A stretch of 32,000 bases of DNA from an uncultured Candidatus Saccharibacteria bacterium (GCA_964432405.1 CAYSNH010000001.1:1-32000); one strand, 5' to 3'. Shown: positions 6,984-24,082, numbered from the stretch's first letter. Notes: generated by a model not told the origin, from the letters alone. Translations and numbers: made by a program.

Positions 6984-8604
6984 TATTTTCAAGAAAATAG
7001 ATCGAGGAGTAGATCTTTTATTTAACTGGTTAGAGAACAATACTCTCCTGGCCTTATTTCTCTTTGTGGCTATTAATATCGCTACTCGCCTCACCTATTT
7101 GGCTTTTATTAGCCATTACTCACCTGGTGCTCTGCTGATTAGAGTAGATGGCTATATATACATGCTTAAAAGCCTCGAAATGATACAAGGTAACTGGCTA
7201 CCAATGAGAACTCATGCCTCTGGCTGGCCCTTTCTACTCACCCCCTTCTTCTATCTAATTCAACATAAATCTATTTTTGAAATGATGATCCATGCTCATT
7301 TCTTTAGTACTTTTATTAGCTCCTTAATTATTATTCCTCTTTACTTAGTCAGTAAAGAAATATTTCAAAACAAAAAGGCTGTATTTACCACCCTAATTAT
7401 CTTTACCTGCTTTTTTTGGGCTATCTATGGCTCACTCGGTCTATTTACCGAACCCATCTTCAGTCTTCTTTTATTATTCATTATCTATTTTCTAATTAGA
7501 TATAAGCATCATCCTCGCCATCTAATAACCGCCTCGGTTTTAGCCGGCGTCTCTTATTGGATCAGACCCAATGGTATTTTTGTTTTATTAATCATCCTCC
7601 TAACTCTATGGCTCTTAAGAAAAAAAGTGCCTCACTTTAGATATCATCACCTTTATCAAGCTATATCTATTTTCTTCATTACCGCCCTCCCCTTTCTTTA
7701 TCAACGCTATCTTAACTTTGACTCCCCTTTCTACTATGGCGAAAACAGCAAATATTTTGTTAATGAATACAACCAACTTTGGGGAGCGGCCTATCCTAAC
7801 ATCTCTTTCTTTGAATATTTAAGCTCCCACAGTTTTATTGAGATATTTAATAGATTTATCGTATTTGGCTTTGGTAGCTTAACCTTCAGTGCTCTCGCCC
7901 TCACCTTACCCTTCTCCATCTTCTTCGTTTGGAGTGTTATGAGATTCTTAAAGGATCCTCGCTTTACCAGCTTGCTGGTAACATTAGGTGTTTGGATTAT
8001 TAGCTTCACCCCCATCTATGCCGTTTATTTCACTCCTCGCCATCTCTTTCCCATCCTTCCTATAGCCGCTATTTTGATCACAGCGGGGGTTTTAAGCTTG
8101 GTTAAGTATCTACGCCATCAAAACCTTGTTTTGTTAGCTATCGCCACTACCGGTCTTTGTTTCATTAGCGTCTCCTACTTCTACCCCCAATACTATTTTC
8201 TTGAGAAAACTCCTCGGGAAGCACTAACTATGAGCCGTTGGATTGCTGAAAATGTTCGTGGAAAGATTGCTATGGCAGCTAGCAACGATATTGTGATGAT
8301 GAACCTTCCTGACACCACTATTGCCCAATTAGGCCTTTTTGATCTTAAAGCTCCTCGAACCAACCTTCAGGTTGTCTATCCTGGGAAAATTAATGACATT
8401 GATATACTAACTCAATGGCTTAAAGACAATAAAGTTGACTATTTAGTGGTGGATAGGGACCATATGCCAAGAATTACACCTCAGTTAAAGATATACACAG
8501 GCAAGGTCCTTCCATCTTATTATGAAAAGATTTATCATGATTATAGTGTCAAATCTTCTTGGGAAACAGAGATTTATAAAATTAATTGGAATAAATTTAA
8601 ATAA
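6943..8604 (+). CDS. Polytopic GT-C type membrane glycosyltransferase (ArnT/PMT, GT39/83-like)
   Basis: About 12 or more TM helices. There is an acidic first-loop motif (RVDGYIYMLKSLE) and a C-terminal soluble domain of about 130 aa. An alternative, likelier start is ATG 6976 (MINIFKK), giving an 8-nt overlap with the upstream gene instead of 41 nt. Confidence 0.6.
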   Translation: MIGVLILLFFIMINIFKKIDRGVDLLFNWLENNTLLALFLFVAINIATRLTYLAFISHYSPGALLIRVDGYIYMLKSLEMIQGNWLPMRTHASGWPFLLTPFFYLIQHKSIFEMMIHAHFFSTFISSLIIIPLYLVSKEIFQNKKAVFTTLIIFTCFFWAIYGSLGLFTEPIFSLLLLFIIYFLIRYKHHPRHLITASVLAGVSYWIRPNGIFVLLIILLTLWLLRKKVPHFRYHHLYQAISIFFITALPFLYQRYLNFDSPFYYGENSKYFVNEYNQLWGAAYPNISFFEYLSSHSFIEIFNRFIVFGFGSLTFSALALTLPFSIFFVWSVMRFLKDPRFTSLLVTLGVWIISFTPIYAVYFTPRHLFPILPIAAILITAGVLSLVKYLRHQNLVLLAIATTGLCFISVSYFYPQYYFLEKTPREALTMSRWIAENVRGKIAMAASNDIVMMNLPDTTIAQLGLFDLKAPRTNLQVVYPGKINDIDILTQWLKDNKVDYLVVDRDHMPRITPQLKIYTGKVLPSYYEKIYHDYSVKSSWETEIYKINWNKFK

Positions 8605-11131: not shown

Positions 11132-11622
11132 AGAAATTAATTAATAAAGTTGTGGAGGTAAATGATCATAACTTTAATTTATTTGCTTATTTAATTTTAG
11201 CTTTGATAATTATTGATGTTCTAACAAATAATTTTTTAAGCTCTGTTGGCATTAACAAAACAGCCTTACTTACCTTCCTAGGCATTAGCGCTATTATTAA
11301 AATCTACTTTAAGACTAAAAATAAGGTAATTATTGACGGTGATGTTATTCAAAACATTTCTCTTCGTAAAACAACCCTAGCCTTACTTAGCATCGCTAAA
11401 AAAATAATAGGCAGCAAGAAAAGAAGTGTTGTAATAGCTATTGTTGTAATTGGAGCAATCTTTCTATACCAAAAACCAACACAAAAAATTATTAATATCT
11501 TCTCTCAATCTGGTATTGCTAATTACGTAATTTATGGTATTTTAATAACTCTGTATATATTAATAGTTTATATTAATTTTTATGAAAAAGACTCTCAGGA
11601 AAATAATCCATCGATTAAATAA
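11128..11622 (+). CDS. Membrane protein (164 aa), unknown function
   Basis: Four hydrophobic segments. ATGA overlap with the upstream gene. No recognisable motif. Confidence 0.45.
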   Translation: MKKLINKVVEVNDHNFNLFAYLILALIIIDVLTNNFLSSVGINKTALLTFLGISAIIKIYFKTKNKVIIDGDVIQNISLRKTTLALLSIAKKIIGSKKRSVVIAIVVIGAIFLYQKPTQKIINIFSQSGIANYVIYGILITLYILIVYINFYEKDSQENNPSIK

Positions 11623-12859
11623 ATTTAGCAGAAAAACCGCCAAATTAGATTTAAAATATTTAGCCAAGAGTGGTAGTTGGCGTATTAGTGAAAATCTTGG
11701 TGGTATTTTAACTTCCTTTTTAATCTCAATTGCCTTTGCTAACCTACTACCCATAAAAGATTTTGGTATTTATAACTACCTACTTTCCATTGCTAATATT
11801 TTTACCTTTCTAACCCTGAGCGGCATGGGGGTAGCCGTCATTCAATCGGTGTCTAAAGGTTATGACAAGTCCTTGTTGACAGCTATAAAAATAAGATTGC
11901 GCTGGAATTTTGTTTACACATTAGGGCTCTTATCTTTTGCTGGCTATTACTTCTTTAAAGGTAATTTTCTTTTTGCTGCATCATTGTCTGTATTAGGAAT
12001 TATAACTCCTCTAACTAGTACCTATAATCTATACAATTCTTTCTTGATGGGTAAAAAGGAATTTAAGCAATCAGCCATATACTCACTTATTAAAAATATT
12101 TTACGACTAGCTGTCACCATTGGGGTGCTATTTATAACAAATAGCGTATTAGCCCTTATAATAGCTTTTGCCTTGGTCTCCTTTATCCCTAATATTTATT
12201 TCTATTTTAAAGTTAAGAATAAATTTAAAATATCCGATAATAAAATACCTGAAAAAGAAGGTGGTTTCTTAATTAATTTTGGCCTACACCGAAGCTTTTT
12301 AGACGCCCTATCCACCTCTGTTGGTTATATAGATAGCATTATCTTATTCCAATTTACCGGGCCAGTTCAATTAGCGTTTTATACTTTTGCTAAAAATATC
12401 CCTCAGATAGGAAATGGATTAATTAAAAACACTCTAAGCATTTACTTCCCTAAAATTGCTAATAAAAGATTAGAAGATATTAGAAAGATTTTTTTTCTTA
12501 GAATAATCCAAGGAATGGTTATTGGATCTCTTGTTGCTATAGCATTGATCATAATAACGCCTCACGTATTTGGAATTATCTACCCTCAATATATAGGCTC
12601 CATCTTCTACGCTCAATTATTATCATTAACAGCTATTTTTGTTATTCCTCGTGCTTATGCAGGCTATATCCTAAATGGTCATCGAATGATTAAGTCTATC
12701 TATTATTCTAGTGTCACAACCAATATCACTCGCCTCATCTTATTTGCCACCCTAGGTTATTTCTTTGGCATCATGGGAATCATAGCGGCTGTAATAATTG
12801 GTGACTTATTTGGCACCATCATACCTATCATAGTACTTCAAAGAGATATGCCTAGATAA
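11582..12859 (+). CDS. Wzx-like oligosaccharide flippase (MOP/polysaccharide biosynthesis protein family)
   Basis: 425 aa with about 12 TM helices. The N-terminus LKYLAKSGSWRISENLGGILTSFLISIAFANLLPIKDFGIYNYLLSI is typical of PST-family flippases. Confidence 0.7.
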   Translation: MKKTLRKIIHRLNKFSRKTAKLDLKYLAKSGSWRISENLGGILTSFLISIAFANLLPIKDFGIYNYLLSIANIFTFLTLSGMGVAVIQSVSKGYDKSLLTAIKIRLRWNFVYTLGLLSFAGYYFFKGNFLFAASLSVLGIITPLTSTYNLYNSFLMGKKEFKQSAIYSLIKNILRLAVTIGVLFITNSVLALIIAFALVSFIPNIYFYFKVKNKFKISDNKIPEKEGGFLINFGLHRSFLDALSTSVGYIDSIILFQFTGPVQLAFYTFAKNIPQIGNGLIKNTLSIYFPKIANKRLEDIRKIFFLRIIQGMVIGSLVAIALIIITPHVFGIIYPQYIGSIFYAQLLSLTAIFVIPRAYAGYILNGHRMIKSIYYSSVTTNITRLILFATLGYFFGIMGIIAAVIIGDLFGTIIPIIVLQRDMPR

Positions 12860-12869
12860 AAAATCTAGG
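12851..12869. terminator. Short hairpin at a convergent gene junction (possible bidirectional terminator)
   Basis: CCTAGAT (12851-12857), AAAAA, ATCTAGG (12863-12869). The TAA of the flippase and the TAG (minus strand, 12865-12867) of the dehydrogenase fusion both lie inside the hairpin. The stem is only 7 bp with low GC and no clear U-tract. Confidence 0.3.
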
Positions 12870-14973
12870 TCATATTACGCAAATGCGCCTTATCAATCAC
12901 AAAGTCAATTCTTTCTCCTTCAAGATAACGACAAACCTTATCAACTAAAGTCACTGCCGCAGCCTCATACATTTGATTGTTAGATCCTGAAATATGCGAA
13001 GTAAGAAAAACATTAGGAAGCTTTCTTAACTCACTTGTTTTAGATAAAGGCTCTCCATCAAAAACATCTAAACAAGCGAATATATCTTCTTTTTTCAATC
13101 TAGAAATTAAAGCGTCTGTATCAACAATCTCTCCTCTTGAGGTATTAATAAAAATGGCGCCCGGTTTCAAAGAGTTGATTTGATCTTTACCAAAACTTTT
13201 TCTAGTTCTATCGGAAAGACCTCTATGCAAAGAAACTATATCAGCTTGCAATACCTCGGCTAGACTAGCTTTTTTGACCTCCATTCTTCGAGCTTCTTCA
13301 TCTGACAAATGTTCAGAATAAATACTAACCTTACAACCAAACGGCTTAAGATATTCAATAAATTTCCTAGAAATAGAACCATAACCAATCAAACCAATGG
13401 TTGAGCCATGGAAATTATTTTTTATCTGCTTACCACCATCTCCTGACTTTTTAACTTTTGGCTCAATGACCCTCCACAAAGGAATTAATAATGGTTTTAT
13501 TTTTTGAACAAGGGGATTTTTAGCTGCTTTCATGGCAAAAGAATAAAAACCTCCTTGTGTTTTAAATCCCCAACCTCCTTTACGCATAATATCGTGAGAT
13601 AATGAAGCTCGCCTTATTCCAACAATAGCCTGCATTAAACAAAATTCCGCCACAGTATCAGCATAAACATCGGAAACGTTTATTAGAGGAATATTTCTTT
13701 TTACTACCACATCAGGATTATATTTCTTTACCGAAGCCCCCACTACTCCCACTACCTTAATATTAGGCAAATTAACTAACCACTCCTCTTTTATCGGCTC
13801 ACCTCCTCTTCCGGTTATAATTGCCACCACCTTTTCTCTCTCTTCTTGATTAAGAGAGGAGATATCTTCGGAAGAAATAATATTATATAGATCAATAAGT
13901 TTTGGTAATTGAGAAGCTATAATTCCTGGATTAGTGACAACAATAGACTCCTCTTTATCAATCTCTTCTTTTACTGTCTTTTTAATAGAATCTAGGTCGA
14001 TGTTACATTTATTCCAATCAATTTCACCTGAAAAACCAGCTTCTGCTAAGTTAGTTAAATAAAAACTAGCAATTAACTTATCTAAAGAGTGTCGTATAGC
14101 AACGCCCTCATTAATAGCCAAGAAAAAATCTTTATGCTCATCATAAAAACCTCTTGCCTCTGGAGAATTACCAAACTGTTCGGTTGTAGATTGATTGTTT
14201 TTAAATATTGTTAAATCGCCATCCAAACATTCAAAACTCATCCCATAACTATGCAAAACATATTTTTCAACTCGTGATCCAGCACTATTATTAGAAGATA
14301 GCGTAGCATGACTACCATTCTCCCATTCTAAAATAATAGAAAAATTTTGATCTTTATCTCCCGCAACTCTATTCTTCTTTGAATAAATTGATTTTGGTCT
14401 ATCGCCCACTAAATAACAAAGGACATCAACCGCGTGAATACAGTTAGCTCCAAACCATGTTTTAGCCCCGTAAGGAACAGGCTCATCAACAACCGCCTTA
14501 TTAAACAAGGCCTCTAAGCTATACGCCTTAAAGTTATCACCCAAATAATCTACCACTCTACTAATATTCTTCTGGAATCTCCTATTAAAACCTCCTACAG
14601 CTATTAAATTAGATTTATTAGCAATACTTATTAACTCAGCTAATTGATCAACTGTTTGTGTCAAAGGTTTTTCAATAAAGACATGCTTGCCAGAAAGCAA
14701 AGCTTCCTTACCATACTCATAATGCATCTTAGTTGTACCTAATACATACACCGCATCAACATCGTCATTAAAAACTTCCTTGGCATTAGTAACTGCTTTT
14801 TCAAAGTTAAATTTATCAGCTGCTCTCTTAGCTGCCTCATTATTTATATCGCAAATAATTTTTAAATTACAAAAGCCCTCATCAGCCAACCTATTAAGAA
14901 TAGGCAAATGAATTTTTGAACTCATCTCTCCTGCTCCAATAACAGCGACATTTATTTTTCTTTGTAATTTCAT
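12865..14973 (-). CDS. Fusion protein: N-terminal Gfo/Idh/MocA oxidoreductase + C-terminal D-isomer-specific 2-hydroxyacid dehydrogenase
   Basis: N-terminal half: INVAVIGAGEMSSKIHLPIL and GKHVFIEKPL (Gfo/Idh/MocA). C-terminal half: GSTIGLIGYGSISRKFIEYLKPFGCKV, FINTSRGEIVDTDALISRLKKEDIFACLDVFDGEPL and LTSHISG (2-Hacid_dh NAD-binding and catalytic blocks). Confidence 0.8.
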   Translation of the reverse strand: MKLQRKINVAVIGAGEMSSKIHLPILNRLADEGFCNLKIICDINNEAAKRAADKFNFEKAVTNAKEVFNDDVDAVYVLGTTKMHYEYGKEALLSGKHVFIEKPLTQTVDQLAELISIANKSNLIAVGGFNRRFQKNISRVVDYLGDNFKAYSLEALFNKAVVDEPVPYGAKTWFGANCIHAVDVLCYLVGDRPKSIYSKKNRVAGDKDQNFSIILEWENGSHATLSSNNSAGSRVEKYVLHSYGMSFECLDGDLTIFKNNQSTTEQFGNSPEARGFYDEHKDFFLAINEGVAIRHSLDKLIASFYLTNLAEAGFSGEIDWNKCNIDLDSIKKTVKEEIDKEESIVVTNPGIIASQLPKLIDLYNIISSEDISSLNQEEREKVVAIITGRGGEPIKEEWLVNLPNIKVVGVVGASVKKYNPDVVVKRNIPLINVSDVYADTVAEFCLMQAIVGIRRASLSHDIMRKGGWGFKTQGGFYSFAMKAAKNPLVQKIKPLLIPLWRVIEPKVKKSGDGGKQIKNNFHGSTIGLIGYGSISRKFIEYLKPFGCKVSIYSEHLSDEEARRMEVKKASLAEVLQADIVSLHRGLSDRTRKSFGKDQINSLKPGAIFINTSRGEIVDTDALISRLKKEDIFACLDVFDGEPLSKTSELRKLPNVFLTSHISGSNNQMYEAAAVTLVDKVCRYLEGERIDFVIDKAHLRNMT

Positions 14974-15854
14974 AATCTAAATACCTTTTTTAACATTCTT
15001 TTAGCTCGACGCATCAAAATGCTTAAAGCAGATACGTCGTTATAATAAACACCTATATCAAATAATGAGTCCTTAATCTCAAAAATGTTATTAAAAGAAT
15101 AACGAGGATATGATGTTATATCACGATTAGAAACGCCGTGCAAAGCATCAACGGAATTAATAAACATTGCCAATGAATTGTCTTGATATGGCAACTCACC
15201 AACCTTCTCACAATATTTATAATCAATCAACCTTGCCCCATGAAATCTAGATTTTTTTCTATCTTTATGTTTATAAAGCTCTAAACTACCACCCACAGAG
15301 TCATCTTCTAATTGTTTAAGATAGAAATTTCCAATAACCATCTTATGCTCATTATCAAGATGAGGAATTTTAACAGACGATGGCATCTCTCTTACCGGCG
15401 TATCAATACATATTTCTGCATCAATAAGAACATCGCAATTTTCAAAACTATCTATATTTCTAATTCCAACACGGAGATTATCAAAATTATTAAATACTGG
15501 CCGCAGGTGAGGATGTTGCTCATAAAGAGCTTCCCCAAAAATATCTAAAAATTTCCTTAAATAATCCTTAGTTAAATGAGCTTCAATAAACTCTCTCCAA
15601 ATTGGAGCAATTGAAGAATCTGATAAAATATCTGCTACTCGACATCTTATTTTACGATTACTTGGAACCTCTGTTCCTCTAGCCACTCCAAGACAATGCC
15701 AACCATAATCAAATTTTAATAAATCTTCTATACTAGGATAAGCTGCTCGTAACTCATCAGCCAAAGATTGATCTAATACCTGTTTTTTAACTATATAAGG
15801 AAACGGATCCCTCTTAACATCTGTTTTATTAATATTATCAAGAATAGTTTTCAT
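14970..15854 (-). CDS. 2OG-Fe(II) oxygenase-like protein
   Basis: N-terminal DPFPYIVKKQVLDQSLADEL resembles the PFPh.vidnFL start of P4H-like 2OG oxygenases. There is an HxD motif (IPHLDNEH), then GGSLELY, then a distal His in NSLAMFINSVDALHGVS. Confidence 0.55.
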   Translation of the reverse strand: MKTILDNINKTDVKRDPFPYIVKKQVLDQSLADELRAAYPSIEDLLKFDYGWHCLGVARGTEVPSNRKIRCRVADILSDSSIAPIWREFIEAHLTKDYLRKFLDIFGEALYEQHPHLRPVFNNFDNLRVGIRNIDSFENCDVLIDAEICIDTPVREMPSSVKIPHLDNEHKMVIGNFYLKQLEDDSVGGSLELYKHKDRKKSRFHGARLIDYKYCEKVGELPYQDNSLAMFINSVDALHGVSNRDITSYPRYSFNNIFEIKDSLFDIGVYYNDVSALSILMRRAKRMLKKVFRL

Positions 15855-15878: not shown

Positions 15879-17732
15879 TTATAATTTTATATTAAAAGAC
15901 TTCGCCCAAATTTGAAAAGAAACAATTGGCATAAATTTCTTCAAATCGACAGTTGAATAAGATGATTTATTTAAATATTGATCCTTAATATATTCAAAAT
16001 CAAATAAATCATTAGTTTCCCTATAATAATCCTCTGATAAAATATCTCTCACCATTACACCAAAACGACCATTCATCCATTGACTCACTGGCGCCCTCCA
16101 ACCAGTTTTCCGCTTATTTATTACATAGTCAGGCAATCTATTTTCATAAGCCCTCTTCATCATTATCTTAAGATTATGAGGAGCTATCTTTTCTCTAGAA
16201 GAAATACTATTAGCATAATTAATTATGTCAGAATCAAGTAACGGAAAACGCCCTTCCATTCCAAACCTCATGGTTATCTTGTCTGTTCTAATAAATTCTT
16301 CATCTGCTAACCAAAAAAGGCGATCTAAATTAGCTAACTCATTCTCAATATCATCACCAGCCTCAACAAACATTGAGTCTAATAAATAATTTTTTAAATC
16401 AATTAAATCATAATTAAATAATTTAAAAGACTTGTTTTTAAATGGTAGGTGAGATTTATTAGTCAATTTATTAATATAAATCCACCTATCAAGTAAATTG
16501 TTTAGCTCAAAATTTTGTAAAGCATTTTTTAACTTTATACTTTTATTTAAATTTTTAATTTTAAAAGCTGTATTAAGAATTGAAGCTGGGTATTTATTAT
16601 ACAAATTATTTAATCTAGAAAATAAATATTTGGGATAACCTAGAAATAACTCATCTCCACCACTACCACTCAAAACTATAGTAACATCTTTACTAGCCTC
16701 TCTCGCTAATAGCCAATAGGCGGCCAGAGAGGGGTTGTAACGAGGCTCTTCTATTGATTTTACAACCTCTTCTGTCGCTTTTATAAAATTATCCTCATCA
16801 ATTAATAACTCACAATGATCTATCCCATAATCACTACTAAGTCTTTTGGCAATTCTCGCATCTTCATTAATAGCTTCATCATCAACATCAAATCTGGTTG
16901 TATATGATTTGCTAATATTACTTTTATTCTTCATTAACTCATAAAGAACCGCTGTTGAATCTAAACCTCCGCTCAAATAAATTCCGAAAGGTCTCAAGCC
17001 CATTGTGTGATCCAGGACTGATTTATTTATTTTCTCTCTTAAAACTTCTGGATCAAAGTTATTGACTGTCTTTTTCAACTGACCAAGCCAAGTCTTTGTT
17101 AATAAGCCATCTTTAAGATCTAACTCTATATACTGACCTGGACAAACCTTTTTAATGCCCTCTATTAAAGTTCTTTGACCGGGAACATATCCTAGCATAA
17201 AGAAGGCATTTGCTGAGTCTTTATCCAGCCTTCTTGATACCTCATGAGTTAAAATACCTCGGATTTCTGAAGAAAAAATAATCTTTTTATTAAAATGATG
17301 ATAATAAAGAGGCTTAATGCCAGAAAAATCACGCGCTAAAAAAATCTTATTATTTTTTCTATCATAAAAAGCAAAAGCAAACATTCCATTTAATTTGGAT
17401 ATGAAACTAGGGCCTTCTTTTATAAGGCCCTGAAACAAAACCTCTGTATCGCAATCAGTATAAAATTTACTACCTAATTTTTCCAAATACCTTCTTAAAG
17501 AACGATAATTATATATCTCGCCATTATAAGTTAAAACATAATTATTATCCTCCGAAACAAATGGCTGCCTAGATTTTTTAGGTAATTCAGTAATAGCTAG
17601 CAAGTTATGACCAAAAGATATCTTATCATTAACAAAGTGACCTGTACCATCAGGTCCTCTATGATTAGTTGCTTCATTCATTTTTAACAACAATTCCTTG
17701 TTATTAAAATTAAATCCATTAATTGCGCACAT
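15879..17732 (-). CDS. Asparagine synthase (glutamine-hydrolysing) family amidotransferase, AsnB-like
   Basis: Nucleophile Cys2 (MCAINGF), the Ntn glutaminase block YNGEIYNY, and the PP-loop YLSGGLDSTAV. 617 aa. It lies in a glycan operon, so it is probably a sugar or carboxylate amidotransferase rather than a housekeeping AsnB. Confidence 0.8.
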   Translation of the reverse strand: MCAINGFNFNNKELLLKMNEATNHRGPDGTGHFVNDKISFGHNLLAITELPKKSRQPFVSEDNNYVLTYNGEIYNYRSLRRYLEKLGSKFYTDCDTEVLFQGLIKEGPSFISKLNGMFAFAFYDRKNNKIFLARDFSGIKPLYYHHFNKKIIFSSEIRGILTHEVSRRLDKDSANAFFMLGYVPGQRTLIEGIKKVCPGQYIELDLKDGLLTKTWLGQLKKTVNNFDPEVLREKINKSVLDHTMGLRPFGIYLSGGLDSTAVLYELMKNKSNISKSYTTRFDVDDEAINEDARIAKRLSSDYGIDHCELLIDEDNFIKATEEVVKSIEEPRYNPSLAAYWLLAREASKDVTIVLSGSGGDELFLGYPKYLFSRLNNLYNKYPASILNTAFKIKNLNKSIKLKNALQNFELNNLLDRWIYINKLTNKSHLPFKNKSFKLFNYDLIDLKNYLLDSMFVEAGDDIENELANLDRLFWLADEEFIRTDKITMRFGMEGRFPLLDSDIINYANSISSREKIAPHNLKIMMKRAYENRLPDYVINKRKTGWRAPVSQWMNGRFGVMVRDILSEDYYRETNDLFDFEYIKDQYLNKSSYSTVDLKKFMPIVSFQIWAKSFNIKL

Positions 17733-19824
17733 TTTCTGATAATTTTAAAATTTTAAATTGTTCGAGATCTCTCTCTGTATCTATCCCAATACTATGCCAA
17801 TCACCTATTACTACCCCTATTTGATATCCATTTTCTAAAGCTCTTAACTGCTCTAATTTTTCTAACTTTTCTAAATTACTCTGAGGAAGTTTCACAAATT
17901 CAAATAGAAAATCTTTTCTATAAGCATAAATACCTAAATGATGAAAAGCTCCATTTACTTGAGAGCGAGTAAAATAAAGAGCTCTGCCTTTATTGTCGAT
18001 TACCGCCTTAACATTACCTTGATTTGCCGCATCAATAGAATCGCCAAATGGAGTAACTGCAGTTACTATTTGTGAGTTATTATCTTCTTTTATCTTTCTT
18101 ACTATTTCAATAATAACCTCTGTTGGCATTAACGGCTCATCACCCTGAATATTAACAATTATTTCAGGATCTACATCGGTTAAATTATTAATTGCCTCTG
18201 CTATTCTATCTGTTCCTGATAAACAATTACTACTTGTCATAACCGCCCCACCTCCTTCTTTAGAAATTATATCAAATATCTCCTGCGAATCAGTTGCAAC
18301 AATCACCTCATCCAAAACATCTGCTTTCTGAGCATTCTTCCAAGTGTGATAAATAAGTGGCTTACCCCCTACATCAGCCAACATTTTTTTAGAAAGACGC
18401 GTAGAATGCAATCGAGCAGGAATTACCCCTATAACCTTAGGTGATTTTAAATTTTTTTTTAAAGTCTCATTCATATCAACTTGAGTGGTTATTGTATTTT
18501 TTCTTTCTTTTAAAATATCTATCGAAGTACTAGCCACGCTCTTCATCTGACTCTCCAAATCAACTGAATTGTCAGTTAAAAAATCCGCCAAACCACCATC
18601 AACTAAATTATCAGCTTGGGTATTATCACTTCTCAAAACCATCACCGGCTTTCCTGATTCAATCATCTCATACAATAATGTAGAGTATGTTCCAATTACT
18701 AAATTAATCTCCTTAAGGATCTCCGCATTTAGCTCTTGAATAATATTAAAGTTAGGACGACTTTTAAAATCATGTAGCTCAGAAATCTTTAGCTGCTCTT
18801 CAATATCTTGATCTGGTCTAGCTTTAAAATATATTTTTAATTTTGGTATTAATAGCAACTGCTTAATGCAATTCTTAACAGCCTCTTTATCAGCTTTAAG
18901 CTCAAAAGGAATTAAAACTACCAATTGGCCATCAAATTGAGTAGCCATAAAATCATTATTAGAATAAAAGGGCTGCCCGCCAATAACAACTCTTTTTTTA
19001 TAAAAGTTATAAACTGGGCTTAAAGATATTAATTCATCTCTCCAATATTTATTCCATACCATAAACTTATCGGGAGCAACACATTTTTCTGGAGGGATGT
19101 TGTAATTGATCCAGCCCGTTAAGTATTTATTAAATCTTCCGTGTTGAAATGAAACAACCTTAATACCAAGCTCTTGAGCGGCAATAATAAGTTCATTATA
19201 ATATCGAGGATCATCAATTGTTAATAGAGTATTAATGCCTGTTAGTTTTAAATACCATCTAATAAACTTAATTTTTTTCTCACTTTGAACCGTGTTAGCT
19301 AACAACCCATCAATAACCTCTCTTAAATAATCTCGCTGATCTTCTTCGAATTCATCAAGTTCTAATTGATAACTAACTTTTTTAGAAGGAAAAAGTAAAT
19401 TGGCTAAATCAATAAAAAAAACGGGCTTGGCATTATATAAATTAGCTTTGAGACCATGAACAACCTCCCCGTATTTAATATTGTTCTTTTCTAAAAAATT
19501 AAAGACTTTTGCTAAACGAAAATCTTTTTTTGATTTAGCTATTGAATACACTAATATTTTTGTCTTATTAATTCTTAATTTTAAAATCAATAATAAAGCT
19601 AAAATAGAATACTGAATAATGTTTTTAATTCTTTTAAGAGTATTTATAATATTTTTTTTCTGCTTCTTAACAGAACGGTTAACAAGAGCATCCCAAAGCC
19701 AAACCTGATTAAAACTCCAAGTAGAATAATGCTTGTATCTACAGAAATCATAAATAGGAATACCCTCAATCTTTAAGAGATTGATTTTCTTTAAAATTTC
19801 CAGATTTTTATCTAAAATTTTCAT
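17719..19824 (-). CDS. kdsB: Fusion protein: N-terminal membrane-anchored unassigned domain (about 460 aa, GT-B/capsule-synthesis-like?) + C-terminal 3-deoxy-manno-octulosonate cytidylyltransferase (KdsB)
   Basis: C-terminal ~240 aa: VIGVIPARLHSTRLSKKMLADVGGKPLIYH, VIVATDSQEI, GTDRIAEA, NIQGDEPLMP, HLGIYAYRKDFL and LEQLRALENGYQIGVV are canonical KdsB blocks. The N-terminal part has one TM helix (IIQYSILALLLILKL) and no motif I can assign with confidence. Confidence 0.8.
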   Translation of the reverse strand: MKILDKNLEILKKINLLKIEGIPIYDFCRYKHYSTWSFNQVWLWDALVNRSVKKQKKNIINTLKRIKNIIQYSILALLLILKLRINKTKILVYSIAKSKKDFRLAKVFNFLEKNNIKYGEVVHGLKANLYNAKPVFFIDLANLLFPSKKVSYQLELDEFEEDQRDYLREVIDGLLANTVQSEKKIKFIRWYLKLTGINTLLTIDDPRYYNELIIAAQELGIKVVSFQHGRFNKYLTGWINYNIPPEKCVAPDKFMVWNKYWRDELISLSPVYNFYKKRVVIGGQPFYSNNDFMATQFDGQLVVLIPFELKADKEAVKNCIKQLLLIPKLKIYFKARPDQDIEEQLKISELHDFKSRPNFNIIQELNAEILKEINLVIGTYSTLLYEMIESGKPVMVLRSDNTQADNLVDGGLADFLTDNSVDLESQMKSVASTSIDILKERKNTITTQVDMNETLKKNLKSPKVIGVIPARLHSTRLSKKMLADVGGKPLIYHTWKNAQKADVLDEVIVATDSQEIFDIISKEGGGAVMTSSNCLSGTDRIAEAINNLTDVDPEIIVNIQGDEPLMPTEVIIEIVRKIKEDNNSQIVTAVTPFGDSIDAANQGNVKAVIDNKGRALYFTRSQVNGAFHHLGIYAYRKDFLFEFVKLPQSNLEKLEKLEQLRALENGYQIGVVIGDWHSIGIDTERDLEQFKILKLSENVRN

Positions 19825-20789
19825 ATAATATGATTCTCTATAATGTCATGAAGATGAATAATGCTTCTTGGCTTATTATCACTCACAACAACCAAAGAGG
19901 TAATCTTATTCTCCTCCATAATTTCAATCGCTTTCTGCAAAGAATCGTTTTCATTAATAGTTATTGGTTGCTTAGTCATGGCCATAGTCACTCCGACCTC
20001 TATTGAAAATTTATCTGATAGAATAAATCTTCTTATATCTCCATCAGTTAAAATGCCTAACAAAAATCCAGCCTTATTAACAACGCAAGTAACACCAAGA
20101 CCTTTCTTAGTTATTTCCTGAAGAGCCTCGGCAAATGATTGTTGATCATGAACCAAGGGCAATCTGTCTTCTTCTTTAAGGATGTTTTTAATTAAAGTAT
20201 TTTTTAAACCTAATTGTCCGCCTGGATGAAAATTATTAAAATCAGCTCTAGCAAATCCTCTCTGCTTACTAACAGCACTTGCTACAAGATAACCAATTAT
20301 TAAAGAAACCGTGGTGCTAGCCATAGGAGCAGTATCAAATGGAGAACCTTCATTATCAATTTTATAAATAATCTTATAATCAACCAATCGAGCCAAAGAA
20401 GAATCTTTATTACCAGCAATTAAAACGGTTTTTGTGCCTATTTTCTTAAAATGCTCTATTAATTTAATAAGCTCCTGGGTCTCACCACTGTTAGAAAGAG
20501 CCAGAATAGTATCATTACCATCAACAACTCCTAAATCACCGTGAAAAGCTTCTGTAGGGTGCAAAAAGACAGCTTTTATGCCAAGGCTATTAAAGGTAGC
20601 GGTCAATTTGTTAGCAATATGACCCGACTTACCCAGCCCAGAAAACACCACCTTGCCATCACATGACTTAATCAGCTCCACAATCTCACAAAAATTGTCA
20701 TCTAAAACATCTTCCAAAGAAGAGCCGGCTATCAAAATGTGACTTAATGTTTCCTGACTAATATTAATTATCTCCTGTCGTTTTTCCAT
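19821..20789 (-). CDS. kpsF: KpsF/GutQ/KdsD-family arabinose-5-phosphate isomerase (SIS + tandem CBS)
   Basis: SIS block GKVVFSGLGKSGHIANKLTATFNSLGIKAVFLHPTEAFHGDLGVV...ILALSNSGET. It is followed by a C-terminal CBS pair (ILTDGDIRR ... ITSLVVV). Confidence 0.85.
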   Translation of the reverse strand: MEKRQEIINISQETLSHILIAGSSLEDVLDDNFCEIVELIKSCDGKVVFSGLGKSGHIANKLTATFNSLGIKAVFLHPTEAFHGDLGVVDGNDTILALSNSGETQELIKLIEHFKKIGTKTVLIAGNKDSSLARLVDYKIIYKIDNEGSPFDTAPMASTTVSLIIGYLVASAVSKQRGFARADFNNFHPGGQLGLKNTLIKNILKEEDRLPLVHDQQSFAEALQEITKKGLGVTCVVNKAGFLLGILTDGDIRRFILSDKFSIEVGVTMAMTKQPITINENDSLQKAIEIMEENKITSLVVVSDNKPRSIIHLHDIIENHII

Positions 20790-20892: not shown

Positions 20893-21747
20893 ATGGCTAA
20901 AAATACAGTTTTTATTCATACCAATAATAAACAACTACTTGGAGCTAAAATTGCCCATTACGCTATCTTCAAGCACCTGAATGATAAAGATTCTGTTGAT
21001 GTAAGAATTATTAATGTTGATAATTTAAGTGTCTTTAAAGATTTTTCTAATAAAAAATATTTACGAAAAGGGACTGAGATAACTTATAACCCTCAGGACT
21101 TACAATCATTTACCCTATCTCGATTTATGCCGCCTCAATTAATGAATTATGAGGGTAAGGCTATTGTTATAGATCCAGATATATTCCCTTTAATCGACAT
21201 TAATCAATTATTTAATATCGAGCTGCAAAATAATGCCATCGCCTGCTGCCCTAAAAAAGATGATTGGGATACTAGCGTGATGCTAATGGACTGCTCCCAA
21301 TTAAAACACTGGCGCATAGAAAATATTATCAATGAGCTAATTAATAAAAAAACCGATTACGTTGATTGGATGTCCTTAAAAATGGAGAAGAATATTCTCC
21401 CTCTACCTAGAGAATGGAATAGTCTGGACAGCCTTTCTGATGAGACTAAACTACTTCACACTACTCAAAGATTAACTCAACCATGGAAAACTGGCCTGCC
21501 CATCGACTTCACTAGAAACAAGCTACCAAAACTCTTTGGTCTTATTCCTCGAGAATGGGTCTTAAAAATAAGAGGTAAATACCCTTCTAAGTATCAAGCT
21601 CATCCTGATAAAAATATAGAAAGATTTTTTATTCAATTAATAAAAGAATCTCTAGAGAATAATTTTGTTTCTAGAGAATTTATTGAAAAAGAAATAGAAG
21701 TTAAGCATGTTCGCCCTGATCTTTTGCTACTGATCGATAAATCTTAA
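20893..21747 (+). CDS. GT8-like nucleotide-diphospho-sugar glycosyltransferase
   Basis: The DxD-type motif AIVIDPDIFPLIDINQLF and the later SVMLMDCSQLKHW resemble GT8 blocks (YLDaDiiv...L and nsGVml.n...wr). It is the only + strand gene between 12.9 and 32 kb. Its last 20 nt lie inside the 331-bp repeat. Confidence 0.5.
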   Translation: MAKNTVFIHTNNKQLLGAKIAHYAIFKHLNDKDSVDVRIINVDNLSVFKDFSNKKYLRKGTEITYNPQDLQSFTLSRFMPPQLMNYEGKAIVIDPDIFPLIDINQLFNIELQNNAIACCPKKDDWDTSVMLMDCSQLKHWRIENIINELINKKTDYVDWMSLKMEKNILPLPREWNSLDSLSDETKLLHTTQRLTQPWKTGLPIDFTRNKLPKLFGLIPREWVLKIRGKYPSKYQAHPDKNIERFFIQLIKESLENNFVSREFIEKEIEVKHVRPDLLLLIDKS

Positions 21748-22894
21748 TTACCTGATCAATATAATCATCCCAATTTCTCTCTTTAGCTAAACGATAATTG
21801 CCCTCTCCTAATTTTTGAGCCAATTCTTCATTGCTTAATATTTTAACAAGAGCATCTGCTGTTGCTTCAATGTTATCTTCAGGAACTAATAGTCCTGTTT
21901 CTTGATGATGAACAGCGTCCGATACACCTCCTGAGTCTGCTGCTACCACTGGTTTTTTATATAAACCAGCCTCTAAATATACTAGACCATAACCTTCAAA
22001 GTTATGATTAATATAACGAGAAGTTAGAGCAAAAACGTTACATCTTTTAAATAAGTAAATTAATTCTTCAGCGGGTATGTTTTGAAGAATAAGAAGATTT
22101 TTTCTAACACCTAAAGATTCGGCTAATTGATAATATTTCTCCTTGTCACCATTACCTACAATTACCAATTGAGCTTCTGGTATTTTACTTACTATCTCCG
22201 GCAAAGCCTGAATTAAAATATCGCCTCCTTTTCTAGACTTGAGAGGGCCTATACTTAGAATAACTTTAGAATTATCTGATATGTCGTCATTTGATGTGAT
22301 TTGTGATTCCGAATCCTCTACGCTGGCTGGTTCACTAATAGGATTATAAATAACATCAATAACTCGCTGATGACCAGATACTTCTTGCATCTTTTTGGCA
22401 GTAAAATTACTAATAACAATAATAGCAGAGGCTTTTTTATACACCTTCATCATTATCTGTCTATCTGGAAATTTAGAAAATGGAGCTACTGAAAAAGTTC
22501 CGTGGCCAGTAAATATAAAGGGGCAATTTAATTTCTTTGCTAATCGATAAGCTAAAAAAGCATAAGGAAAATCTATTAATGAGTGCACTAAAGAAGTCCC
22601 ATTATTATCAATAGGAATTTTTTTCCATAAAAAAAATATTTTTCGAAGAGCTTTTATATGTATTAGACTTTTTGGTAAATTATTAAACAATCCTTTAATA
22701 GCAAAACTACTTGGTAAATTAGGTAGAATATATTTTATTTTATCAGCATAAGGAACATTAAATCTTTGAGCTTCTTCAGGTAACAACAATTCAAAATCAA
22801 TATCTTTTTTATAAAGAAACAAAGCGTGATGATGAGTCATCGTTCCAAAACCAGAATTTGGCTCAATTGAATTACTTAATAAAATAATTTTCAT
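21701..22894 (-). CDS. GT4-family glycosyltransferase (paralog A)
   Basis: GT-B C-terminal domain with the E-x7-E region NFEGYGLVYLEAGLYKKPVVAADSGGVSDAVHHQETGLLV. The last ~107 shared residues are identical to paralog B. It overlaps the 3' end of the convergent GT8-like gene by 47 nt. Confidence 0.8.
   Translation of the reverse strand: MKIILLSNSIEPNSGFGTMTHHHALFLYKKDIDFELLLPEEAQRFNVPYADKIKYILPNLPSSFAIKGLFNNLPKSLIHIKALRKIFFLWKKIPIDNNGTSLVHSLIDFPYAFLAYRLAKKLNCPFIFTGHGTFSVAPFSKFPDRQIMMKVYKKASAIIVISNFTAKKMQEVSGHQRVIDVIYNPISEPASVEDSESQITSNDDISDNSKVILSIGPLKSRKGGDILIQALPEIVSKIPEAQLVIVGNGDKEKYYQLAESLGVRKNLLILQNIPAEELIYLFKRCNVFALTSRYINHNFEGYGLVYLEAGLYKKPVVAADSGGVSDAVHHQETGLLVPEDNIEATADALVKILSNEELAQKLGEGNYRLAKERNWDDYIDQVIKIYRSVAKDQGEHA
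21728..22058. repeat. Copy A of a perfect 331-bp direct repeat (partner at 22952-23282)
   Basis: Base-by-base reading shows identity from tactgatcgataaatcttaattacc... to ...catcttttaaataagtaa at a constant offset of 1224 bp. Confidence 0.9.
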
Positions 22895-22948: not shown

Positions 22949-24082
22949 CTATACTGATCGATAAATCTTAATTACCTGATCAATATAATCATCCCAATTT
23001 CTCTCTTTAGCTAAACGATAATTGCCCTCTCCTAATTTTTGAGCCAATTCTTCATTGCTTAATATTTTAACAAGAGCATCTGCTGTTGCTTCAATGTTAT
23101 CTTCAGGAACTAATAGTCCTGTTTCTTGATGATGAACAGCGTCCGATACACCTCCTGAGTCTGCTGCTACCACTGGTTTTTTATATAAACCAGCCTCTAA
23201 ATATACTAGACCATAACCTTCAAAGTTATGATTAATATAACGAGAAGTTAGAGCAAAAACGTTACATCTTTTAAATAAGTAATCTAAATTTTGAGATGAT
23301 GTTTCAGGCAGAATTAATAAATTTTTTTTGTACTGAATAGGATTCAATAGTTTATAGTACTTATCCCTATCACCATTTCCTACAATAACTAAATAAATAT
23401 TAGGAATTTTTTTAATAACATTTGGTAAAGCCTTAATTAAAATATCCATTCCTTTTCTAGACTTGAGAGGGCCTATACTTAGAATAACTTTAGCTGATTC
23501 TGGAATATTAAAATGATCTTCTTGAGAAGCTGTTATTTTTGATGGTTGAGTAACTGGTAAGTTGATTACATCAATAGAACGGCAATGATTAGAAACTTTC
23601 TGTGCTTGTTGAGCAGTAAAATTACTAATAGCAATAACCTTACTAGCTTTTTTAAAAGACTCTAATAGTAATTGCCTTTGAATGATCTTGGTAAAAGGTC
23701 TCACTGAATAACTGCCAATCGCTGAATAAATAAAAGGGCATTTATTTTTTTTAGCCCAATGCCAACCTGTTAAGTTATAGGGAAAGTCTATTAAAGAATG
23801 AATAATAACTGGCTCTGAAAAAGTTTTTTTAATGATTAATAATTTTAGAAATTTAAGTATATTTCTCCAACAACTCAATACGGGAAGTAAAGATGGTAAT
23901 TCATAGCTAATTTGATTAACAAAAGGGACATCTATTCGTTTAGCATTCCAAGGAAGAAAAAGTTGGAAAGGAACTCCTCTTTTATGTAAATAGCTAGCAT
24001 GATTGTAGGTTAGAGTCCCCCAACCTGAGCTAGGAGTAATTGTATTACTAATAAGAATAATTTTCCTTTTTTCATTTATCAT
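22949..24082 (-). CDS. GT4-family glycosyltransferase (paralog B)
   Basis: Same C-terminal GT4 module as paralog A. The N-terminal two-thirds are only about half identical to A (for example HSLIDFPY and KVILSIGPLKSRKG are conserved). Confidence 0.8.
   Translation of the reverse strand: MINEKRKIILISNTITPSSGWGTLTYNHASYLHKRGVPFQLFLPWNAKRIDVPFVNQISYELPSLLPVLSCWRNILKFLKLLIIKKTFSEPVIIHSLIDFPYNLTGWHWAKKNKCPFIYSAIGSYSVRPFTKIIQRQLLLESFKKASKVIAISNFTAQQAQKVSNHCRSIDVINLPVTQPSKITASQEDHFNIPESAKVILSIGPLKSRKGMDILIKALPNVIKKIPNIYLVIVGNGDRDKYYKLLNPIQYKKNLLILPETSSQNLDYLFKRCNVFALTSRYINHNFEGYGLVYLEAGLYKKPVVAADSGGVSDAVHHQETGLLVPEDNIEATADALVKILSNEELAQKLGEGNYRLAKERNWDDYIDQVIKIYRSV
22952..23282. repeat. Copy B of the perfect 331-bp direct repeat
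   Basis: See copy A. A second in-register identical 44-bp patch lies at 22226-22269 and 23450-23493. Confidence 0.9.

Follow-up and report, generated by a model that had tools for sequence, protein, structure and literature searches.

The minus strand of the analysed window (the whole stretch of DNA, 32,000 nucleotides) carries a gene for a protein in which a domain with a predicted membrane helix and a predicted GT-B fold is followed by a CMP-Kdo synthetase (KdsB). On balance, this protein is probably a bifunctional enzyme, combining a CMP-Kdo synthetase with a Kdo transferase of a new GT-B family that would use CMP-Kdo as donor and act on a presumed acceptor. The first-pass annotation had proposed one ORF joining KdsB to an N-terminal part of ~460 residues, and the ORF is indeed intact, with the following layout:

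17719..19824, minus strand: whole fused ORF, 701 aa with an ATG start, GT-B domain N-terminal and KdsB C-terminal
18439..19824, minus strand: N-terminal domain, aa 1-462, with a conserved ~50-aa head, a hydrophobic helix and a predicted canonical two-Rossmann GT-B fold
17719..18438, minus strand: KdsB (CMP-Kdo synthetase) domain, about aa 463-701, conserved KdsB motifs intact
18415..18462, minus strand: fusion junction, devoid of linker, the last GT-B helix running into KdsB strand 1 (PKVIGVIPAR)

The fusion is real. Its junction is in frame and stop-free (...LKKNLKS-PKVIGVIPARLHST...), and the fused frame is open in at least five independent marine metagenome assemblies (L039, L040, L041, L042, and L043; 69-98% identity); the stop or frameshift envisaged at first pass, splitting the ORF into two genes, is not observed in these five. 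Local DNA has a GC content of ~31%, and the maintenance of a 701-codon frame at 69-98% identity across independent assemblies lies far beyond chance. An A9 homopolymer (18452-18460) sits within the junction, and in a related contig (L038) a deletion at the junction splits the fused gene; both would suit an error of sequencing or assembly, or else a pseudogene born from accidental read-through of two genes. This explanation is hardly credible, however, given that the five assemblies derive from different samples and assemblers and preserve the junction in proteins diverged to 69-74% identity, and that no separate start codon for the KdsB half precedes its essential IPAR motif. In a distant relative (L003), the two parts are unfused, the stop of the N-domain gene being followed 3 nt later by the KdsB start. 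Separate N-domain and KdsB genes are found as neighbours in either order (L003, L012, L025).

Judged by its sequence, the C-terminal part contains a complete KdsB, spanning residues ~463-691. It scores 172 bits against Pfam PF02348 and passes the curated cut-offs of NF003952 (259 bits, cut-off 193), NF003950 (236 bits, cut-off 234), and TIGR00466 kdsB (189 bits, cut-off 155), the first of these being an NCBIfam model; it falls below two stricter models, NF003948 (226 bits, cut-off 281) and NF009905 (235 bits, cut-off 255). Solved KdsB structures are matched at E 1e-41 to 1e-43. The motifs IPARxxSxRLxxK, SGTDR, NIQGDEPL, HxGIYAYR, LEQLRxLENG, and GIDTxxDLE all align with those of H. influenzae KdsB (3duv, 1vh3), where they presumably serve to bind nucleotide, metal, and Kdo. 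All KdsB motifs had been placed at roughly 17722-18445, in good agreement with the domain limits given above.

The N-terminal domain, by its model, is a glycosyltransferase-fold member of an uncharacterized family. Residues 1-462 have no match in Pfam, NCBIfam, or PDB sequences even at E<=10. The family, which gathers 365 clusters at E<1e-30, is unnamed, nearly always standalone, and found mainly in MAGs of the tiny Patescibacteria, in which the unfused gene is common and lies among genes of the Kdo pathway. Residue conservation and a Pfam scan (E<=10) were analysed over 75 members, and these place it in no Pfam family; the earlier description of the N-terminal part as belonging to an unknown family thus stands. 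A single transmembrane helix had also been proposed, and the AF2 model displays a hydrophobic helix at the corresponding position:

19570..19641, minus strand: predicted membrane helix, aa 62-85

Such a hydrophobic segment is present in 72/75 family members (19-aa window, KD>=1.6), with a median start at residue 75. The AF2 model (pLDDT 84.5, pTM 0.84) exhibits two β/α halves (aa 90-281 and 301-416), and the domain is confidently predicted to adopt a canonical GT-B fold of two Rossmann-like domains, as the alternating β/α pattern had suggested. Foldseek returns GT-B enzymes at E 1e-9 to 1e-7; among 263 PDB matches at E<=1e-3, the top 50 are all GT-B enzymes, and the C-terminal half searched alone leads to the same GT-B outcome. 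In both searches, UDP-GlcNAc 2-epimerases, including the hydrolysing NeuC, come first, and these epimerases together with UDP/TDP-dependent glycosyltransferases stand above the CMP-Kdo-binding domain of WaaA (rank 49).

Several motifs stand out in the N-domain, two in its N-terminal portion and three in the C-terminal one:

19204..19218, minus strand: I-D-D-P-R motif, aa 203-207, in the N-terminal Rossmann half (D204 in 74/75 members, D205 in 68/75, R207 in 74/75)
19138..19146, minus strand: Q227-H228-G229 motif (Q and H each in 75/75)
18889..18903, minus strand: E308-L-K-A-D312, topological counterpart of the QxxxD of retaining Kdo transferases
18811..18828, minus strand: F-K-A-R336-P-D, topological counterpart of the K-x-H-P CMP-phosphate motif, with His replaced by Arg
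18667..18693, minus strand: G-T-Y-S-T-L-L-Y-E, aa 378-386, in the C-terminal Rossmann half

The QHG motif, whose H228 lies at the end of a strand of the N-domain, is shared with two bridge proteins, P0156 and P0157 (see below). Invariant H228 is a candidate catalytic base by analogy to TagF H444 and TarL H300, an analogy drawn from topology rather than from a significant alignment. E308 occurs in 75/75 members; position 312 holds Pro in 39/75 and, as in the fused protein (Asp312), Asp in 12/75. In the next motif, R336 is invariant (75/75), K334 and D338 are found in 69/75 and 66/75, and a Pro follows R336 in 36/75. The GTYSTLLYE stretch (G378 74/75, S381 72/75, T382 70/75, L384 75/75) is a probable phosphate/ribose-binding loop, and R336/K334 together with S381/T382 may hold the CMP phosphate.

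These invariant polar residues (Q227, H228, E308, and R336) favour catalysis over scaffolding, which bears on whether the N-domain is a transferase at all. It might instead be a GT-B-fold nucleotide-sugar epimerase or hydrolase of the WecB or NeuC type, or a regulatory or scaffold module tethering KdsB to the membrane, as the leading position of UDP-GlcNAc 2-epimerases in both fold searches and a marginal match of P0156 to Epimerase_2 (E 0.02) would have it. However, no non-transferase family is matched with confidence, and the 25 families that the 75 members match most often (E<=10) do not include Epimerase_2. Furthermore, a membrane anchor and Wzx/Wzy-like neighbours suit a transferase working on a lipid-linked acceptor, and a non-transferase role is quite improbable.

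A weak likeness to the motifs of KpsC/KpsS-type β-Kdo transferases had been noticed at first pass, with E in place of Q and R in place of H; these positions correspond to Glu308 and Arg336, and the likeness is borne out by P0156. This protein aligns with the family profile at an hhalign probability of 97.7% (E 2e-12), with SQPQRD opposite E308..D312 and LKPHP opposite FKAR336P. Its scores exceed the Pfam gathering cut-offs of both PF05159 and PF04464. In P0157, YKTHP is aligned on FKAR336P. On these alignments, the family shares a real but remote homology with the Capsule_synth (KpsC/KpsS) and TagF-like families via P0156. Members of PF05159 and PF04464 release CMP from CMP-Kdo or CDP-polyols. 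Direct hhalign comparisons with KpsS (9%), KpsC (14%), and a TagF-like polymerase give probabilities of 9-14%, which are not significant; likewise, the alignments of FKARPD to VKVHPD of KpsC and, locally, of GTYSTLLYE to TDYSSIAFD of the TagF-like polymerase are below significance. PF05159 has no match in any of the 75 members at E<=10, and PF04464 has weak matches in 4/75 (best E 0.0075), under the gathering score and none in the fused protein. The resemblance to capsule-synthesis-type transferases therefore holds as a remote link to both families, but not as membership of either.

The family lacks the defining motifs of each characterized Kdo transferase family considered. A KpsC/KpsS-type retaining β-Kdo transferase (GT99, GT107, GT140) was rejected: the Gln of QxxxD is Glu in 75/75 members, the nucleophile Asp is present in only 12/75, and the HP histidine is Arg336 throughout. 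As this Asp and this His are not conserved and the architecture is predicted to be canonical GT-B, the N-domain is placed outside the retaining group. The E. coli group 2 capsule system (KpsU and KpsC/KpsS; GT107, PF05159) nevertheless has, like the present locus, a GT-B-derived enzyme together with KpsF and a dedicated KdsB, and the motifs in the C-terminal Rossmann half of KpsC/KpsS follow the topology seen here (strand-[Q/E]xxx[D], then strand-K-x-[H/R]-P, then a loop rich in S/T). The logic of the fusion is also seen in E. coli CFT073, where kdsB (kpsU) and kpsC, a Kdo transferase gene, overlap by 4 nt, although KpsU and KpsC/KpsS are separate proteins. KpsC/KpsS, which use a carboxylate-binding Gln and an HP His where the family has Glu and Arg, display a remodelled GT-B fold with an inserted helical subdomain, whereas the model of the N-domain matches canonical GT-B enzymes.

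Membership of WaaA/KdtA (GT30), the inverting α-Kdo transferase of LPS, was likewise discarded. No GT30 model is found among the matches of the fused protein or the 25 families most matched by the 75 members, and the structural likeness (2xci at rank 40 with the whole domain, 4bfc at rank 49 with the C-terminal half) is no better than for other GT-B families. WaaA is also a canonical membrane-associated GT-B enzyme using CMP-Kdo, and it is not known to have the QxxxD/HP double-displacement apparatus. It acts, however, on lipid A precursors, while hosts of the N-domain family are mostly Patescibacteria, for which we know of no reported LPS pathway.

TagF and TarL (PF04464) resemble the N-domain in being membrane-associated GT-B enzymes with an invariant His-Gly in the N-terminal half and a YS(S/T)xxxx(D/E) loop, and both would have CMP as leaving group. 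The N-domain could accordingly be viewed as a TagF-like phosphotransferase that moves a polyol or sugar phosphate from a CDP-linked donor into a teichoic-acid-like polymer, KdsB being an unrelated partner or the maker of an unusual CDP/CMP donor. The weak PF04464 matches, the score of P0156 against that family, the likeness of H228 to the TagF-like base and of GTYSTxLYE to TDYSSxxFD are compatible with this, as is the fact that most hosts are Patescibacteria, which to our knowledge have no outer membrane. However, the second invariant His of the TagF family (TarL H433), which protonates the leaving phosphate, is Arg336 in 75/75 members, leading to the rejection of membership. The fused cytidylyltransferase is, moreover, of the KdsB type (259 bits) and not of the polyol-phosphate IspD/TarI type (IspD 25 bits, under the cut-off of 27), and neighbours resembling KpsF and DAHP/Kdo8P synthase indicate an ulosonic acid. 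TarL also attaches through monotopic amphipathic helices, unlike the apparently single hydrophobic helix of the family. Altogether, a polyol- or sugar-phosphate transferase is unlikely.

The gene neighbourhood is that of a polysaccharide cluster, with the following genes around the fusion:

19821..20789, minus strand: KpsF/KdsD-type arabinose-5-phosphate isomerase (SIS and two CBS domains), overlapping the fusion start by 4 nt
20893..21747, plus strand: GT8-like gene, divergently transcribed (PF01501, 26.6 bits), a conserved module partner
15879..17732, minus strand: AsnB-type glutamine amidotransferase, its start overlapping the fusion 3' end by 14 nt
14970..15854, minus strand: 294-aa protein with a weak 2OG-Fe(II) oxygenase signal (PF13640, E 0.0025), a recurring module member
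12865..14973, minus strand: GFO/IDH/MocA oxidoreductase fused to a D-2-hydroxyacid dehydrogenase
11582..12859, plus strand: Wzx-type flippase (Polysacc_synt)

The isomerase scores 264 bits against TIGR00393 kpsF (cut-off 204), and its stop overlaps the start of the fused ORF as ATGA. Across 39 loci harbouring the family gene, KpsF is present in 26 and lies directly upstream on the same strand in 21; in L015 and L024 a gene of the DAHP/Kdo8P-synthase family lies between the two. A KdsB or another CTP_transf_3 cytidylyltransferase is encoded near the family gene in many of these loci. The GT8-like gene (47-61% identity) recurs in 20/39, AsnB in 16/39, Wzx in 26/39, and Wzy_C-TPR in 12/39. Homologs of the 294-aa protein (29-38% identity) occur in L003, L011, L016, L025, and L028, and the oxidoreductase and dehydrogenase are separate genes in L004. 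Neither a Kdo8P synthase nor a phosphatase gene lies in the 32-kb window, which counts against the favoured reading. The ORFs scanned in it yielded no ABC-transporter Pfam domain; with their Wzx and Wzy-like genes, the studied clusters differ in this respect from E. coli group 2 capsule loci.

This context also bears on the donor. The N-domain might be a GT-B enzyme that uses an ordinary UDP-, GDP-, or dTDP-sugar and acts immediately before or after the step that adds Kdo. It could, for instance, glycosylate an acceptor containing Kdo, and the fusion would then couple two pathway steps rather than donor synthesis and use. The top structural matches, being UDP/TDP-dependent GT-B enzymes and UDP-GlcNAc 2-epimerases, point in this direction, as does R336, which stands where CMP-dependent GT-B enzymes typically have the histidine of the HP motif. 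Glu308 also counts against a Kdo donor: at this position retaining Kdo transferases bind the carboxylate of Kdo through Gln, and it is not obvious how a further carboxylate would accommodate an anionic sugar. The conserved GT8-like gene and several GT4 genes also lie nearby and encode transferases that could add Kdo. However, we know of no use of CMP-sugars by GT4 and GT8 enzymes, so that among candidate Kdo transferases only the family gene travels consistently with KpsF and KdsB. In addition, PF05159 and PF04464, both CMP-releasing, are the only annotated families to which its sequence is significantly linked, and its CTP_transf_3 partner persists even at loci without KpsF. An ordinary nucleotide-sugar donor is thus a minority possibility that retains some weight. 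In L004, L019, and L029, the family gene adjoins a non-KdsB cytidylyltransferase, and donor specificity may hence vary across the family.

For the fused protein, Kdo transfer and substrate channelling are suggested by the fusion itself and by the gene context; the transferase activity, its donor and acceptor, and the stereochemistry of its product are all putative. The enzyme would be attached to the membrane on its cytoplasmic side, where its C-terminal KdsB would convert Kdo and CTP into CMP-β-Kdo. The N-terminal GT-B domain probably consumes this labile donor directly, in keeping with the coupling put forward at first pass; it would move Kdo itself or a tailored form of it to a membrane-bound and probably lipid-linked glycan, with release of CMP, and the Wzx of the same cluster would flip the resulting product. 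Engineered fusions of CMP-Neu5Ac synthetase and sialyltransferase, which are artificial, soluble, and dedicated to sialic acid, likewise join a CMP-ulosonic-acid synthetase to the transferase consuming its product. The fusion studied here differs in being natural, Kdo-related, and, as predicted, membrane-anchored, with the putative transferase at its N-terminus. It probably arose when the stop codon separating two adjacent, translationally coupled genes was lost, and would hold synthetase and transferase close together at a 1:1 ratio.

The gene under study is encoded by a single minus-strand ORF of 701 codons in the ORF listing of the window, and it lies among the following features:

12865-14973, minus strand: fusion of a GFO/IDH/MocA oxidoreductase and a D-2-hydroxyacid dehydrogenase
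14970-15854, minus strand: 294-aa protein
15879-17732, minus strand: AsnB-type amidotransferase
17719-19824, minus strand: N-terminal domain (N-domain) fused to KdsB (CMP-Kdo synthetase)
18452-18460: run of nine A (A9)
19821-20789, minus strand: KpsF-like protein
20893-21747, plus strand: GT8-like protein, divergently transcribed
21701-22894 and 22949-24082: two tandem GT4 genes
21728-22027 and 22952-23251: copies of a 300-nt direct repeat
25922-28198: double GT4
30027-31928: GT4-sulfotransferase fusion

The sequence reveals that the ATG of the KdsB fusion and the stop codon of the upstream gene share an ATGA, and that the final 14 nt of the fusion overlap the start of the AsnB-type gene. Residues ~463-691 form a complete KdsB, scoring 172 bits against Pfam PF02348, 259 bits against NCBIfam NF003952 (cut-off 193) and 189 bits against TIGR00466 (cut-off 155), and matching 13 solved KdsB structures with E-values of 1e-33 to 1e-43. 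Alignment to the Haemophilus enzyme indicates that the IPARxxSxRL, SGTDR, QGDEPL, HxGIYAYR, LEQLRxLENG and GIDT motifs are kept. The 120 best relatives of this half in the architecture survey are all standalone proteins of 238-303 aa, with 41-53% identity. The KdsB half is ordinary, and the first-pass annotation, which described one ORF with a complete KdsB following ~460 residues of no known family, proved accurate in the ORF, Pfam, NCBIfam and PDB searches.

The fusion is real. Its junction passes from ...LKKNLKS to PKVIGVIPARLHST... with neither a linker nor a stop codon. An artefact was considered, the first-pass annotation having called for a check that the junction is no misassembly; five contigs (L039-L043), differing in sample and assembler, have the frame open as well, which makes an artefact very unlikely. 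These contigs encode relatives with 98% (P0001, in L042 and L043), 74% (P0003, in L039) and 69% (P0004, in L040 and L041) identity to the window fusion, and all five display an identical KpsF-to-fusion arrangement. In a distant relative, L003, the two halves are separate genes 3 nt apart, and a standalone KdsB gene lies directly upstream of the family gene in L012 and L025, and the fusion therefore arose from adjoining genes by loss of a stop codon. No separate start codon precedes the N-terminal nucleotide-binding motif of the KdsB half, and the activity of this half therefore depends on the fused polypeptide. This natural fusion is confined to one small marine clade, and no report of natural KdsB-transferase fusions was found in the literature.

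The A9 homopolymer lies exactly at the junction, and slippage on this run could break the gene apart or join it again; relatives have A8 and a substitution, with no indel. In the close relative L038, a junction deletion (L038:2400-2430) removes the KdsB VIGVIPARLHSTRLSKK motif and splits the gene. This locus was rejected as a natural unfused allele, since the deletion takes out the essential N-terminal motif of KdsB, and it is therefore a degraded or chimeric copy. Its N-domain looks mosaic, the first ~290 aa resembling P0003 and the remainder P0001, which suggests recombination or a chimeric assembly.

At a threshold as loose as E<=10, the first ~460 residues still have no match in Pfam, in NCBIfam or among PDB sequences, and searches of the same collections with the N-domain alone and with 10- and 75-member sets found no family. 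A word-indexed search retrieved just ten relatives, and an exhaustive profile search 1,907 cluster representatives at E<1e-3, 365 of them at E<1e-30. Nearly all are standalone proteins of 470-500 aa, a length of ~700 aa being reached only in the P0004 cluster, and their sources leave them unnamed or call them "hypothetical protein". The AlphaFold2 model of the N-domain, built on a ten-sequence alignment (pLDDT 84.5, pTM 0.84), displays two Rossmann-like halves, preceded by a head of ~50 residues and a helix at aa 62-85. Foldseek returned 263 PDB matches at E<=1e-3, with 9-16% identity and TM-scores of 0.3-0.6. The best 50 are all GT-B enzymes (UDP-GlcNAc 2-epimerases, MurG, GT1 and GT4 enzymes, and WaaA at rank 40), in agreement with the GT-B-like transferase fold guessed at first pass. 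A 19-residue hydrophobic segment near residue 75 is found in 72 of 75 members, with flanks equally rich in basic residues, giving no topology signal.

Two alternatives draw on this fold: the N-domain might be a GT-B enzyme using an ordinary UDP- or GDP-sugar in an adjacent pathway step, or a non-transferase GT-B protein such as an epimerase. Whole-domain Foldseek puts generic GT-B families first, and the C-terminal half modelled alone (pLDDT 85.2) gave the same generic picture: CMP-specific families did not rise with this nucleotide-binding half, the CMP-Kdo-binding domain of WaaA reaching rank 49. The remote sequence link to CMP-releasing families and the gene neighbourhood speak for a CMP-linked donor.

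Among 75 diverse members, Q227, H228, E308, R336 and L384 (window protein numbering) are invariant, and D101, R103, D204, D205, R207, K334, D338, Q344, G378, S381 and T382 nearly so. A family-profile search of a Pfam-labelled database found, at E 2e-10, the bridge protein P0156, which aligns with the family profile over 240 columns (hhalign probability 97.7%) and clears two Pfam gathering scores, that of PF05159 (Capsule_synth, the KpsC/KpsS family) and that of PF04464 (TagF-like). The QHG and VW..W(K/R) motifs are common to P0156 and the family. Its SQPQRD aligns with E308-L-K-A-D312 of the family and its LKPHP with F-K-A-R336-P, a placement on which hhalign and an independent MAFFT alignment agree; a second bridge, P0157, has YKTHP at the latter position. 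P0156 has no match in the PDB by sequence. Direct hhalign comparison of the family with authentic KpsS, KpsC and TagF-like polymerase (E. coli CFT073) gave probabilities of 9-14%, which are not significant. The resemblance to KpsC/KpsS motifs proposed at first pass holds through the bridge proteins and is not significant in direct comparison.

The retaining β-Kdo transferases (GT99, GT107 and GT140) possess a QxxxD motif, comprising a carboxylate-binding Gln and the nucleophile Asp, together with an HP histidine and a remodelled GT-B architecture (PMC9587256, PMC12887879). TagF-like enzymes harbor two invariant histidines, one being the catalytic base and the other protonating the departing CMP phosphate (PMC10901376). 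In contrast, Glu replaces the carboxylate-binding Gln and Arg the HP histidine in all 75 family members, and at the nucleophile position 39 have Pro and only 12 have Asp, the window protein being one of the 12. The family appears to keep the motif topology of these enzymes, not their chemistry. A TagF-like phosphotransferase was also considered; the PF04464 score of P0156 speaks for it, and the replacement of the second TagF-family histidine by Arg speaks against it. Because of the altered motif chemistry and the low direct hhalign probabilities, the N-domain is taken to be distantly related to the CMP-releasing GT-B enzymes and to belong to no described family.

A scan of a genome collection yielded 31 loci, mostly in Patescibacteria MAGs (Saccharibacteria, Parcubacteria, Paceibacteria, Kaiserbacteria and Minisyncoccota), the best match being a Saccharibacteria MAG at 34% identity; this single scan returned no near-identical locus. 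The other hosts are several MAGs labelled Gammaproteobacteria, in which gene order is as in the Patescibacteria loci, one Bdellovibrionota and one Archaeoglobus MAG (contig L019, MTMJ01000044.1). Horizontal transfer is one possible cause of the Archaeoglobus and Gammaproteobacteria placements; binning contamination and mislabelling are others. To count the neighbours, the ORFs from 39 non-redundant loci were all clustered.

Table. Neighbours of the family gene in 39 non-redundant loci.
KpsF-type arabinose-5-phosphate isomerase: 26/39; same strand and directly upstream in 21
MetW-like methyltransferase: 27/39; directly downstream in 13
Wzx flippase: 26/39
GT8-like protein: 20/39; 47-61% identity to the window copy vs ~28% for the family protein
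AsnB: 16/39
Wzy_C-TPR protein: 12/39
GT9 heptosyltransferase-like protein: 12/39
Standalone KdsB: 8/39; fused copies not counted

L015 (~7300-8400) and L024 carry a DAHP-synthase-family gene with KpsF on one side and the family gene on the other; in L030 this gene follows the family gene, and in L018 (820-1668) it adjoins KdsB. It scores 367 bits as a Bacillus-type DAHP synthase and 120 bits as a Kdo8P synthase (cut-off 314), and its product carries a KPRS motif. It may be the Kdo8P synthase of these bacteria or the maker of another 3-deoxy-ulosonic acid. A 7-carbon acid replacing Kdo as a general rule in such loci was dropped, the gene being found beside KpsF in L015, L024 and L030. In L004, L019 and L029, which lack KpsF, the family gene adjoins a HAD phosphatase and a divergent CTP_transf_3 cytidylyltransferase. 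Because of its KpsF, DAHP-synthase-family and KdsB or CTP_transf_3 neighbours, the family is placed within predicted gene sets making and activating an ulosonic acid, in which no other candidate for the transferase step is present consistently. In E. coli, the kps locus follows the same logic, kdsB (kpsU) and kpsC overlapping by 4 nt.

In 8 loci, including L010, L011, L013, L017, L022 and L033, SecA is encoded within a few genes of the family gene, which suggests that the chromosomal location of the module is conserved in these Patescibacteria. The 12 loci with GT9 (LPS heptosyltransferase-like) genes include L010, L014, L016 and L030-L032. GT9 enzymes of LPS biosynthesis put heptose onto Kdo, and these neighbours hint at a Kdo-heptose-type structure in bacteria for which, to our knowledge, neither an outer membrane nor LPS has been reported.

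In the proposed mechanism, KpsF would supply arabinose-5-phosphate, and a Kdo8P synthase and phosphatase would supply Kdo; these two are placed elsewhere in the genome because neither was found among the ORFs of the 32-kb window. The C-terminal KdsB domain would make CMP-Kdo, and the membrane-held N-terminal GT-B domain would bind the CMP moiety in its C-terminal Rossmann half, with the donor phosphate held by R336/K334 and S381/T382 and the acceptor hydroxyl activated by H228, perhaps with D204/D205. KpsC and WbbB use double displacement. Since the Asp nucleophile is not conserved in the family, a single-displacement inverting reaction seems more likely; the window subfamily retains ExxxD and may use double displacement.

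Wzx together with the Wzy-like genes points to a repeat unit that is linked to a lipid, and the 2OG-oxygenase-like, methyltransferase, amidotransferase and dehydrogenase neighbours suggest that the sugar is further tailored. The 294-aa protein, conserved in several loci (29-38% identity), gives only a weak signal for 2OG-Fe(II) oxygenases (E 0.0025), the class to which the Kdo 3-hydroxylase KdoO belongs, and by analogy it might hydroxylate the Kdo residue. AsnB, which separates this gene from the fusion in the window, is absent there in L042 and L043 despite their 98% identical fusion, and cluster content therefore varies between very close strains. The GT8-like protein, with a weak Pfam GT8 match and no NCBIfam match, seems to be under stronger constraint than any other part of the module. 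The 300-nt repeat forms identical 3' ends of the two tandem GT4 genes (100% identity, and 78% over a further 146 nt) and could be explained by a duplication in the recent past, by gene conversion or by an effect of the assembly. Two GT4 genes occupy this position in L042 and a single one in L039. The oxidoreductase and dehydrogenase fused at 12865-14973 are separate genes in L004. With the double GT4 and the GT4-sulfotransferase fusion in the same cluster, the lineage seems prone to fusing pathway genes. No tRNA and no Rfam match were found in the window.

It is possible, if somewhat short of probable, that the N-domain founds a new glycosyltransferase family, dependent on CMP-Kdo or more broadly on CMP-ulosonic acids, in which the HP histidine, universal elsewhere among CMP-releasing GT-B enzymes, has given way to Arg and the carboxylate-binding Gln to Glu. 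It would put Kdo-type sugars into Patescibacteria surface glycans, the KdsB fusion being a single-polypeptide system that makes and immediately uses an unstable donor. What is new, as judged from sequence, is a partner family with altered catalytic motifs and no curated model; new, too, are the close association of this family with genes of the Kdo pathway in Patescibacteria and its natural fusion to KdsB. Nothing was found in the literature describing the partner family, its Kdo-gene linkage or the fusion, nor on Kdo in Patescibacteria. CMP-Kdo decays quickly and needs in situ generation, which makes a natural synthetase-transferase fusion attractive for chemoenzymatic synthesis. If the N-domain is a Kdo transferase, it would represent a new family with altered chemistry (Arg for the HP histidine, no conserved Asp nucleophile) and add to the few known Kdo-handling enzyme families. 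Kdo-type acidic sugars are usually seen as a hallmark of Gram-negative LPS and capsules; they would then be indicated in the surface glycans of Patescibacteria, whose envelopes are largely uncharacterized and whose surfaces mediate their epibiotic lifestyle.
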